IMG/VR virus record: IMGVR_UViG_3300027985_001623
Location: 34,504 to 98,503 of that record
Strand: one strand, 5' to 3'
From: a virus
DNA length: 64,000 bases
The notes under the pieces: generated by a model
Database searches by the model: none
Told to the model about the DNA's origin: nothing
Seen by the model: only the letters and a program-made list of their open reading frames with translations
Position numbers and translations under genes: made by a program
Part shown: positions 47,426 through 56,356 of the stretch, piece after piece
How the letters are laid out: each line of letters begins with the position of its first letter
Position numbering within the stretch: position 1 is the stretch's first letter

Positions 47426-47836
47426 TCAGAACGGGCTTATCAAACCCTCGTGAATCAGCATCGTTTTGGCGATGGCGCCAAAGATGTAGTCTTTGGCGCG
47501 CTGTTCTGGAGGAAGTTGCTCATAAGGGACAAAACACGGATGCTCTTTTTTGTCGGGGTCCTTAACGGACCCGTACTTCCACCCATCCTCGGCTTTCTCT
47601 GCGAGCCAAGATTCATGCGACGCCGACGGGGGCGCGTCCGGATGGGTTCGGTGAAATTGCACGCCATTGATGGCAGATCCAGTCTGCCAATCAGGAGCAT
47701 CCGACCAATGCGGTTGGCTATGGTCACCAAGCGCTGCACAATAGGCGCGATTTGCCTCATGACAAGTTTCTGCGATGCGCTCGATGGCGAGCCGCTCGGA
47801 AGCTAGCTGGTGTTGGTTGTCGGGTTGTGTGTTCAT
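47426..47836 (-). CDS. RyR (ryanodine receptor repeat) domain protein
   Basis: CHEANRAYC...W..AP.WQ; SHESWLAEK..DGWKYG..KD..KKEHPCFVPYEQLP.EQRAKD; GGAG SD. Confidence 0.85.
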   Translation of the reverse strand: MNTQPDNQHQLASERLAIERIAETCHEANRAYCAALGDHSQPHWSDAPDWQTGSAINGVQFHRTHPDAPPSASHESWLAEKAEDGWKYGSVKDPDKKEHPCFVPYEQLPPEQRAKDYIFGAIAKTMLIHEGLISPF

Positions 47837-47931
47837 TTCTCTCCAATAGGTCCGCTATCTTCGACGTTTCGCTTTTCGCCCAGGTTTCGCGGAATTTACC
47901 TGCATCGGTCGCCCCTACTAAAAACGACCTC

Positions 47932-47974
47932 TGGTGCGCCGTTGGGAATCGAACCCAAATTCGCCGGCCGGCGC
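47932..47974 (-). ncRNA. tRNA-like minihelix (acceptor stem + T-arm + ACCA, no anticodon arm)
   Basis: GCGCCG-GCCGGCGAAT-TTGGG-TTCGATT-CCCAA-CGGCGC-A-CCA. Confidence 0.65.
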
Positions 47975-48142
47975 AATTTTTTTGAGTGTGTGCTAATTTC
48001 GCATGACGAGACCTCCTTCGTCGGGCTTCGCGAGCCAAAGTTTCGCGGCAGATTTGGCTCGGGCTGGGATATCCGCTCTACCCGTGCGGTAAGAAGCAAG
48101 AGCCCAATTTTAGCGGCGAGCGCTTGCTTGGCGTGGTAATTC

Positions 48143-48352
48143 CTACGTGTTGCAGGCGATGCCGGCTTTGGCCATCATCGTCGCGTTTTGCAGCAGTGTG
48201 AGCGCGGCCGATTTCTCTCGGCTATCCGGTTGGCTGCTGTCGATGAGGTGAGCGAACGCTTTTGCCGTTTCTCCGATTGCGTCGTACTTTGGGATTTGGT
48301 CGGGTTTTGGCGCGTGGTAGGTGAACATATTGTTGATCTGGTCGGTCATCAT
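48143..48352 (-). CDS. Acb2/Tad1-like helical-hairpin protein (putative immune-signal sponge)
   Basis: FTYHAP..DQ..KY..I...AK.FA.LI....PDSREKS.ALT.L..A.M.A.A.IA pattern; REKSxAxTxL..AxM resembles the Tad1/Acb2 C-terminal helix. Confidence 0.7.
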   Translation of the reverse strand: MMTDQINNMFTYHAPKPDQIPKYDAIGETAKAFAHLIDSSQPDSREKSAALTLLQNATMMAKAGIACNT

Positions 48353-48427
48353 GGTGTGCTGATCTCTGAGTGGTAGGTCGCTTCCTATTCTTTAGGGAGC
48401 GGTTGGATTTTCAAACAAAATTTTAAC

Positions 48428-48506
48428 TTTTGCAATCTAGCGTGCGCCATTTTGCACCGCTTATTGCGCCGTTTTGCAATCTACCGTGCGCCGGTTTGCA
48501 ATCTGT
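48428..48506. repeat. four 22-bp-phased direct repeats (TTTTGCAATCTA.CGTGCGCC), putative operators
   Basis: copies start at 48428, 48450, 48472, 48494 between divergent genes. Confidence 0.8.
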
Positions 48507-48530
48507 CTTTATCTGGGTAACCTAACTCCC

Positions 48531-48809
48531 GTGCCCGAAGAACCGGCCTTGCCCGCGCGAATCCGCGCCTACTATTCCAACTTGGGAGTGGCCCCCACGG
48601 CCATCACTGCCGCCTTTGGGAGAGTTTGCAACATCAGCTACCACACGGCTGCCAGCATCATGGCTGGACAGGCGGTGAGCCTCCCCGTGGCGAACCGAGT
48701 TGTGGAATTGAGCCCGATCGCCACAACGGTCACGGAGCTTGTCGAAGGAACCCATGAACAAGACGCGCAGAAACAGAGCACGCCGGCGCCGAGCCGAGCG
48801 AAGGGCTGA
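48531..48809 (+). CDS. HTH (Cro/XRE-like) regulator, probably leaderless
   Basis: FGRVCNISYHTAASIMAGQAVSLPVA; TTGCAA-16-TAACCT ends 7 nt before GTG 48531. Confidence 0.55.
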   Translation: MPEEPALPARIRAYYSNLGVAPTAITAAFGRVCNISYHTAASIMAGQAVSLPVANRVVELSPIATTVTELVEGTHEQDAQKQSTPAPSRAKG

Positions 48810-55201: not shown

Positions 55202-56356
55202 TCAGAAAAACAAATGAAAAATCCAATGCAAAAACGCAATCCCCTCAAAAGCAGCCGCCCCCAAGCCAAGGTAAAGGACCACCCGGGTTGCTCGATTAAC
55301 CTTCTGAATTCGCACCAAATGGCTCTCCACGAGGGCCAACTGCTGTTCGGCCTGCTCCGCCCGAGCAATCGAGGCATTCGCGTGGTCCACCAAAAGCAAA
55401 TCCGCCCCCACCAACCCGACTTCGTCCAATTGCTCCACCGAAAACCGCTCCCCGCCACTTCGAACCTCCCCCGCGAACCGTGCAGGGCACCGGCTCGGTT
55501 CACGCAAAGCAGGCGGCCTCCACGGCATCAGAGCCGGCGATTCAGGTGAGCGCCACTGTTCGACCATCTGAACCCCCGCTTCAGCAACCTTCTCAGCATC
55601 TTGCTCCCGCCAATAGGCATGGTCGTCGTACGCCACCGAAGGGCTCTCATTTCGCGCAACCTGATTAAATTCCATAGCAAACTCCACCGCTGAAAAGTAA
55701 ACCGCCACCTCCGGCACGCGGTACCATTGCGCGCCCGCAATGTGACAAATCTGTATCACCACGGCGTTTTCACGCATTTCAGTGACCAGACCCTTCCGAA
55801 GCACCTTGTAACACTCTTCCGTCAAATCCCGCCGCCGAACCAGAGCCGGCTTATCGGGGTCCATATTTCGAAACCGCGCCCAAAGGTCCACCACTCCAAA
55901 CGGTCGAGAAGCTGGCGGCTTCATAAAGGGCACGCTCAAAAGCAGTTTCCCCACGGGATTTTCCTCTAAAACTTCCTGCTCTTTGACCCCCGTGGTCGGC
56001 TCGGTTTCTGGCTCGGCACCGACGCCAGGTTCAACGTTTTCCGGGTAGTAAATCGCTACTTTCCAGGGGCCCGACATAGCACCCTGAGCATCACGGCCGG
56101 TGCAAAGATCGATTCGCGGGTTCTGAAAGCTGACCACGGTCGAGAACTCCGGAAATCCGGCGTGGGTAAAATCCGAAAGGTCTTCCCGACGAATTTTTAC
56201 CGGTCGGGTATGGCCCTGGGTGTTGTAACAGTCGATGAGGTCCAAGGTATTGACGCCCAGCTCCGGAGTTTTAGGGGTAAAAAACGGGTCACTTTCGCAA
56301 GGGTAGTCCGGGTACTGCGGGGACTTCGAAAAAATTTTGCTGATAAAATTTTTCAT
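55202..56356 (-). CDS. hypothetical protein with coiled coil and C-terminal TM anchor
   Basis: 384 aa; internal repeat IRREDLS/VRRRDLT with VAIYY/VAVYF; terminal hydrophobic helix. Confidence 0.65.
   Translation of the reverse strand: MKNFISKIFSKSPQYPDYPCESDPFFTPKTPELGVNTLDLIDCYNTQGHTRPVKIRREDLSDFTHAGFPEFSTVVSFQNPRIDLCTGRDAQGAMSGPWKVAIYYPENVEPGVGAEPETEPTTGVKEQEVLEENPVGKLLLSVPFMKPPASRPFGVVDLWARFRNMDPDKPALVRRRDLTEECYKVLRKGLVTEMRENAVVIQICHIAGAQWYRVPEVAVYFSAVEFAMEFNQVARNESPSVAYDDHAYWREQDAEKVAEAGVQMVEQWRSPESPALMPWRPPALREPSRCPARFAGEVRSGGERFSVEQLDEVGLVGADLLLVDHANASIARAEQAEQQLALVESHLVRIQKVNRATRVVLYLGLGAAAFEGIAFLHWIFHLFF

Follow-up and report, generated by a model that had tools for sequence, protein, structure and literature searches.

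Genes and features of the locus

The window, meaning the whole stretch of 64,000 nucleotides that was analysed, covers bases 34504-98503 of a 98,503-bp IMG/VR virus record, which carries a 50-bp terminal repeat and is rated complete. The phage originates from a hydrothermal-vent metagenome and is a myovirus, its terminase, portal, capsid, sheath, and tape measure having been identified. Among sequencing runs, two DNA metagenome runs, which may be the source itself, were listed as containing the element's sequence, and no RNA run was. No tRNA genes and no CCA-adding enzyme were found in the complete genome. Tyrosine and serine recombinases (PF00589 and PF00239) were likewise absent from it, with the control searches matching 14 of 14 and 12 of 14 reference genomes.

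Two genes of the minus strand enclose the region of interest. The upstream gene (48143-48352) encodes a 69-aa protein with an Acb2/Tad1 hairpin domain (PF24729, E 5.7e-15; phrog_1454), and the downstream gene (47426-47836) encodes a 136-aa RyR-domain protein of the RyDEP type (PF02026, E 8e-12; 3113 homologs). A sigma-70-like promoter site, TTGAAA-16-AAGAAT, recognised by consensus match only, lies ahead of them at 48387-48414 on the same strand, and no terminator-like site was found between the two genes, which probably form a co-transcribed two-gene cassette. Since a recent report describes phage RyR-domain proteins as degrading or sequestering the cADPR signals of Thoeris (bioRxiv 10.64898/2026.05.28.727677), the two genes are, by their predicted domains, an anti-defence pair directed against Thoeris/CBASS nucleotide signals.

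Both domains also occur in one chain among the 3113 RyR homologs, in one order in P0003 and P0023 and in the other order in P0029 and P0105. As separate genes, the pair was found in other phage contigs, overlapping in L025 and 40 nt apart in L030. The fusions in both orders, together with the abutting genes, point to a functional pairing of a sponge-like domain with a signal-degrading domain. Since the two domains are elsewhere fused or abutting, the 306-nt spacer that separates them here (47837-48142, minus strand) is probably an insertion into a functionally linked gene pair.

This spacer contains, on the coding strand shared with both flanking genes, a tRNA-like minihelix (47932-47975), located 167 nt past the upstream stop codon and 95 nt ahead of the next start codon. 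A short hairpin without a U tract follows it at 47907-47929 (GGTCG at 47929-47925, CGACC at 47911-47907). The first-pass annotation had reported this GGTCG/CGACC hairpin, which was borne out; it was not called a terminator.

Several further features were noted in the spacer. A 15-nt motif (minus strand CCGCGAAACCTGGGC and variants) occurs three times, at 47878-47892, 48034-48048, and 48102-48116, with two copies before the minihelix and one after it, each within a hairpin. The two exact CCGCGAAAC copies among these flank a 156-nt unit holding a minigene, the minihelix, and the hairpin; the motif could be a target duplication or a protein-binding site. At 47993-48018 (minus), a perfect Shine-Dalgarno sequence (AAGGAGGT) is followed by ATG CGA AAT TAG, ending 17 nt before the minihelix. 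Outside the spacer, at 48428-48531 and upstream of the cassette promoter, four GATTGCAAAA-CGGCGCA-like boxes with 22-bp spacing face a divergent small gene.

Other readings of the spacer were set aside. Its open reading frames on either strand had no Pfam and no PHROG match, a group I intron or other known RNA was rejected as no Rfam match was obtained at E values up to 10, and the view of a highly structured spacer was abandoned because a 321-nt fold gave a z-score of +0.2, so that the spacer as a whole is not unusually stable.

Structure of the minihelix and its likeness to tRNAs

Read directly from the sequence, the element is a 44-nt top-half minihelix on the minus strand, running from 47975 to 47932 as TGCGCCG / GCCGGCGAAT / TTGGG-TTCGATT-CCCAA / CGGCGCA / CCA. 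The 5' acceptor strand TGCGCCG (47969-47975; U1 and G2-G7) is complementary to the 3' acceptor strand CGGCGCA (47941-47935). Between the 5' strand and the T arm, the 10-nt linker GCCGGCGAAT (47959-47968) replaces the D arm, the anticodon arm, and the variable loop, thus substituting for tRNA positions 8 to 48. The T arm (47942-47958) fits the GGTTCRANYCC motif and comprises TTGGG (47958-47954), TTCGATT (47953-47947), and CCCAA (47946-47942). The encoded CCA is located at 47932-47934.

All 12 pairs of the two stems (a 7-bp acceptor including U1-A72, and a 5-bp T stem) are of the Watson-Crick type, and the loop is a canonical T-Psi-C-R-A loop (T54-Psi55-C56-R57-A58) with G53-C61. On their 3' strands the acceptor and T stems adjoin without a gap, as they do in tRNA, which allows the two helices to stack. 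The part of a tRNA gene that consists of a 7-bp acceptor stacked on a 5-bp T stem with this loop is therefore present, and the cloverleaf with D and anticodon arms is missing. The minihelix described in the first-pass annotation was in this way confirmed, at a length of 44 nt and with both acceptor strands intact.

Two registers of the acceptor stem are possible. With a 7-bp acceptor, the terminal A pairs with U1 as A72, and the CCA comes directly after it, with no discriminator, at the end of a 12-bp helix. With a 6-bp acceptor, the same A becomes A73 and the end reads ACCA, on an 11-bp rather than a 12-bp stacked helix. The "A discriminator" named in the first-pass annotation accordingly holds in the 6-bp register and fails in the canonical 7-bp geometry.

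The minimum free energy fold forms both the acceptor and the T stem. Its energy was ordinary when compared with shuffled sequences (z from -1.2 to -1.7), and the case for the minihelix therefore rests on the motif and not on stability. Minihelices of this kind arose 0.175 times per genome in its first-order Markov copies when G-U pairs were allowed, and 0.005 times when CCA was required too. An analytic estimate requiring all pairs to be Watson-Crick gave about 2e-5 chance occurrences per genome, at which rate a few chance cases are still possible across the roughly 250,000 windows of the scan. Because these chance estimates are so low, the observation is regarded as confirmed: this is a real, tRNA-derived top-half minihelix. 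It was also the sole strict match to the motif across the whole genome.

Searches with established models did not assign the element to a known family. As had been anticipated, ARAGORN missed the minihelix, calling no tRNA and no tmRNA in the window or in the whole genome, and Rfam gave no tRNA match to it. The best Rfam match was the mascRNA-menRNA family (RF01684), with 25.5 bits against a gathering score of 42.5 (E 0.069), and membership was rejected as below the threshold. A tmRNA tRNA-like domain was rejected as well, since pair 3-70 is C-G and not G3-U70; the beta_tmRNA match of the region reached 11.7 bits against 84. A dedicated covariance model (R1) scored the minihelix at 57.5 bits (E 6e-9), the minihelix being itself one of the five training sequences, with the next best match at 18 bits, and it detected no second copy in the window or in genomes G001-G004. 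A candidate in G004 (69179-69277) was rejected as chance, as it overlaps a gene start and folds poorly.

Concerning natural tRNAs, 76 genome loci (L090-L165), nearly all from Planctomycetota, carry full-length tRNAs sharing the acceptor stem of the minihelix. They comprise 41 distinct sequences, of which 33 are a tRNA(CAU) that has a D stem of the initiator type (A11-U24), a TTCGATT loop, and A73. In the initiator-type tRNA(CAU) of Planctomycetota, mainly Isosphaeraceae, U1 stands opposite A72 and the anticodon stem has just two G-C pairs at its base; the genes lack an encoded CCA.

The acceptor stem and T loop of the minihelix are identical to those of this tRNA, and 21 of the 23 bases from G52 to A72 match it. 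Two T-stem pairs differ, each on both sides, and A73 is missing. An initiator tRNA acceptor is marked by a weak or mismatched 1-72 pair, G2-C71, C3-G70, G4-C69, and A73, with the three pairs from 2-71 to 4-69 counted as minor determinants for methionyl-tRNA formyltransferase (PMC9976931). The minihelix carries U1-A72, G2-C71, C3-G70, and G4-C69, and A73 is absent in the 7-bp register.

The resemblance to the initiator is kept as a lead only and, at the level of sequence, could be a coincidence, because, with millions of tRNAs in existence, one that shares a given 7-bp stem will turn up, and because the phage capsid protein was not found in 304 Planctomycetota genomes (3 + 301). The exact 24-mer made up of the T arm and the 3' acceptor strand was absent from 185,579 species genomes, a set that is not exhaustive for contiguous identity to a host tRNA. 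In metagenomes, the exact T arm with the 3' strand gave one match, a tRNA(CAU) with U1-A72. It lies in L084 (metagenome contig SDBT01067712.1), where 26 tRNA genes are arrayed within 5.2 kb of AT-rich sequence and which presumably comes from a large phage.

Related loci and similar elements in other phages

Relatives of the locus itself were sought with its genes. The RyR gene search returned 36 loci, none of them syntenic and none with the minihelix, and the search with the 69-aa Acb2/Tad1-like gene returned seven loci in unrelated contexts; both genes are widespread, in unrelated settings. The neighbouring 210-aa gene had no relative in IMG/VR, and in a search of the locus against a cultured-phage database the RyR gene was matched and nothing else. 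Four capsid relatives (42-64% identity) have structural and replication modules in common with this genome. In whole-genome protein synteny with these four, the region from 69 to 98 kb was essentially without homologs, constituting a hypervariable accessory region. As no relative carries this locus, covariation for the minihelix is unobtainable.

Other tRNA-like features were observed in the relatives. G001, a capsid relative, has a plus-strand tRNA-like gene (L066:10517-10591; Rfam tRNA 47 bits) that encodes TCCA, has an anticodon hairpin loop of just 4-6 nt, and lies directly upstream of an 862-aa replication gene. G002 has a tRNA-Met with U1-A72. About 60 nt past the capsid gene, L057 (2441-2484) and L052 (1500-1541) have a top-half-like hairpin with a TTCGATT loop, whose outer stem shows a compensatory change from C-G to U-A between the two. 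A different T-loop hairpin occupies the same place in L051 and L058, and in the present genome a plain terminator is found there instead (window 23950-23905, minus).

In G003 (approximately 55330-55500; L062:1480-1650, minus), a structure of about 165 nt between two co-directional genes is closed by a stem of 14-17 bp (GGAAGTGATCG.../...CGATCACTTCC) and encloses two T-arm-like hairpins (GGGGGTTCAAGTCCCTC and GGGGGTTCGAGTCCCTC). Its fold z-score was -2.0, and neither Rfam nor ARAGORN matched it.

The exact full minihelix pattern had no match in IMG/VR. A scan of the same database was performed with the pattern GCGCCG, 3-30 free bases, GGTTCGANTCC, three free bases, and CGGCGC, which yielded 42 loci (L166-L207) of at least eight unrelated types; these comparators were chosen by one acceptor sequence and are related to the minihelix by form only. 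Short minihelices whose linkers measure 0-23 nt make up seven of the types, and one (L176) is a tRNA lacking the anticodon arm alone. The latter, at L176:8520-8575 (plus) on a 60-kb viral contig, has an acceptor stem, a D arm, and a T arm.

The comparators have the 6-bp GCGCCG/CGGCGC acceptor, a 5-bp T stem, and a TTCGANT loop, and they lie on the coding strand between co-directional genes. The three T-stem pairs left free by the pattern were complementary in seven of the eight types, each such case being about 5% likely by chance. Examples are found at L166:8997-9039 (minus), L180:13411-13449 (plus), L186:622-656 (minus), and L172:212-241 (minus), and L189 has two further copies with a different acceptor stem (2366-2394 and 2949-2977, both minus).

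Most types begin 0-7 nt past a stop codon and/or end 1-29 nt ahead of a start codon. Type A (31 contigs) starts 2 nt past a TGA stop codon, type B starts 6 nt past a stop codon and ends 29 nt ahead of the next ATG, types C and D are closely preceded by a stop codon and followed 1 nt later by an ATG, and type F precedes a ribosome-binding site and ATG. Types A and B had no match in the cultured-phage database, and no published description of such phage minihelices was found in a literature search limited to open-access texts.

In contrast to the minihelix studied here, in which CCA is encoded and which lies in mid-spacer, the comparators have no encoded CCA (none of the eight types), and most of them directly adjoin a stop or start codon. 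CGGCGC is followed by an A in five of the seven other types, and the base at that place has no Watson-Crick partner in six of the seven. In this respect the comparators favour, by sequence comparison, the "6 bp + A" register for the GCGCCG/CGGCGC acceptor type. As judged by form and position in sequence, the minihelix belongs to a class of top-half elements at phage gene boundaries and is not a one-off.

A candidate processing signal and its rivals

The best reading, held at rather less than even confidence, is that the minihelix may act, by analogy, as a t-element-like signal, directing RNase P and 3' trimming so as to split or stabilise the bicistronic mRNA. It would be transcribed within the message running from the Acb2/Tad1-like to the RyR-domain gene. 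RNase P cleavage would fall at its 5' edge, ahead of U47975 or G47974, and on the 3' side either trimming would proceed as far as CCA or RNase Z would cut. Such cleavage would part one cistron from the other, determine how stable each is relative to its partner, and free a small RNA of about 41-44 nt with a CCA end.

Work with model substrates has established that bacterial RNase P requires no more than a coaxial acceptor/T helix that has a T loop and ends in 3' (R)CCA. Acceptor/T-arm minihelices were reportedly employed as model substrates by McClain, Guerrier-Takada and Altman in 1987 and by Francklyn and Schimmel in 1989. Laboratory substrates of this kind, accepted by RNase P, the CCA-adding enzyme, and some aminoacyl-tRNA synthetases, have the same coaxial acceptor/T helix, T loop, and 3' NCCA. 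They are, however, constructs, whereas the phage minihelix occurs naturally, contains a 10-nt bulge linker, and can be read in either an 11- or a 12-bp register.

Known natural systems offer closer parallels in position. In plant mitochondria, t-elements define mRNA ends via RNase P and RNase Z (Forner et al. 2007, PMC1920247). These and the t-elements of Haloferax are likewise non-decoding, combine a GGTTCRANYCC T arm with an acceptor-like stem, and are embedded in mRNAs at gene borders, where their edges are the mRNA ends made by the two enzymes. The phage element has the same combination on the coding strand of an intergenic region without a tRNA gene, within a presumed transcript. The t-elements are, in contrast, organellar or archaeal with mapped ends, while the phage element consists of the acceptor and T arm only, encodes CCA, and is not flush with gene ends.

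The E. coli secG-leuU co-transcript, from which RNase P separates the secG mRNA and the leuU tRNA, similarly joins an mRNA to a tRNA-shaped unit, which is there a real decoding tRNA (PMC2241853). The mascRNA/MEN-beta RNAs (RF01684) also have a tRNA-like fold at an RNA boundary, are cut by RNase P and RNase Z, and receive CCA, but this family, of which the phage minihelix is not a member, is vertebrate and forms a cloverleaf with extra arms.

The processing reading is favoured by a motif far beyond chance with 12 of 12 Watson-Crick pairs, by the promoter-like site upstream and the lack of a terminator-like site between the genes, by flanking domains that are fused or abutting elsewhere and so form a linked pair with an inserted spacer, by the top-half minihelices at gene boundaries of other phage contigs, and by the post-capsid hairpins of L057 and L052 with their compensatory change. 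It is weakened by the presence of the minihelix as a single copy in one genome without a homologous locus, by its position, which unlike that of the comparators is not flush with gene ends, by the ordinary stability of the spacer, and by the fact that neither register is ideal for RNase P (12 bp without a discriminator, or 11 bp with ACCA). An RNase P signal splitting the operon mRNA had been proposed in the first-pass annotation. The coding strand, the probable two-gene cassette, and the analogues between stop and start codons are in keeping with that proposal.

Next in order, and rather unlikely, is that the element is a non-functional relic, namely the undecayed remainder of a former tRNA(CAU)-like gene from which the D and anticodon arms were deleted internally. 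Relatives do carry tRNA or tRNA-like genes, such as the tRNA-Met of G002 with U1-A72 and the gene of G001 with its shrunken anticodon loop. The 10-nt linker is as long as the 3' strand of the anticodon stem and the variable loop together (5 + 5), so that a deletion of positions 8-38 would be possible, and slippage could have been mediated by short direct repeats in the junction GCCGGCCGG. A single copy in a hypervariable accessory region, without homologs in relatives and not flush with gene ends, would also suit a relic.

However, the 12 pairs, the T loop, and the CCA are all intact, and similar armless elements recur at gene boundaries in many phages. Descent from a tRNA of the Planctomycetota or G002 type would moreover imply that two T-stem pairs changed on both sides with pairing kept, and such double-sided changes, if homology is assumed, would argue for selection.

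It is doubtful that the freed CCA-ended minihelix serves as an acceptor-end decoy, titrating a toxin that modifies tRNA 3' ends or an initiator-tRNA enzyme such as formyltransferase. More doubtful still is the specific form in which a stable CCA-ended mimic of the initiator acceptor acts in trans as a decoy for a host effector or enzyme reading tRNA 3' ends. The location inside an anti-defence cassette, the encoded CCA against none in the eight IMG/VR types, the acceptor stem and T loop shared with the initiator-type tRNA(CAU) of many Planctomycetota, and the weak 1-72 pair with G2-C71, C3-G70, and G4-C69, listed as minor formyltransferase determinants (PMC9976931), would fit such a role.

Against it, the neighbouring genes target nucleotide signals and not tRNA, no tRNA-related enzyme is encoded and no CCA-adding enzyme was found, and a single-copy element in an mRNA would be a weak titrant. 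Chance alone would supply a CCA in about 3% of cases, a 7-bp stem can be expected to coincide with that of one or another of millions of tRNAs, and a search of 301 Planctomycetota genomes did not find the capsid gene. The earlier suggestion of a decoy for CCA-end toxins thus gained no direct support, the flanking genes acting on nucleotide immune signals (Thoeris/CBASS).

Chance resemblance in a GC-rich spacer is very improbable. The number of windows read, for which a few chance cases are expected, and the unremarkable fold energy speak for it, but they are opposed by the full canonical T loop with G53-C61, the correct stacking geometry, the CCA, and the position on the coding strand of a non-coding spacer.

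Least credible of all is a recombination site, either attP or the scar of an integration, derived from the 3' end of a host tRNA: the stretch from the tRNA T arm to the 3' end is the usual attachment core and 21 of 23 bases match the Planctomycetota tRNA(CAU), but the reading is without support because the genome has no tRNA gene, recombinase, or CCA-adding enzyme, the 5' acceptor strand, which an att core does not need, is present too, and the sole exact metagenome match is a tRNA in the 26-tRNA array. The combination that would have marked an attP for the first-pass annotation, a match to a host tRNA 3' end plus an integrase, did not materialise, with no integrase and no exact 24-mer found.

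While t-elements themselves were already known, what is new here is a t-element-like form in a phage, with an encoded CCA. Given the CCA and the initiator-like acceptor stem, there is a small chance of a trans-acting tRNA mimic, which would be new to phage counter-defence. Were it a decoy, the cassette would have an RNA as its third component, next to the signal sponge and the RyR-domain enzyme that degrades the signal.

As a processing signal, the minihelix, which lies between two linked anti-Thoeris/CBASS genes known as fusions from other phages, could fix the ratio at which they are expressed. Should armless tRNA top halves be a routine means by which phages recruit the tRNA-processing enzymes of the host, operon mRNAs could be cut and stabilised without any phage-encoded factor, and gene callers and tRNA finders would systematically miss one class of regulatory RNA. 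Such elements would then be a bacterial-virus counterpart of mitochondrial tRNA punctuation and t-elements.
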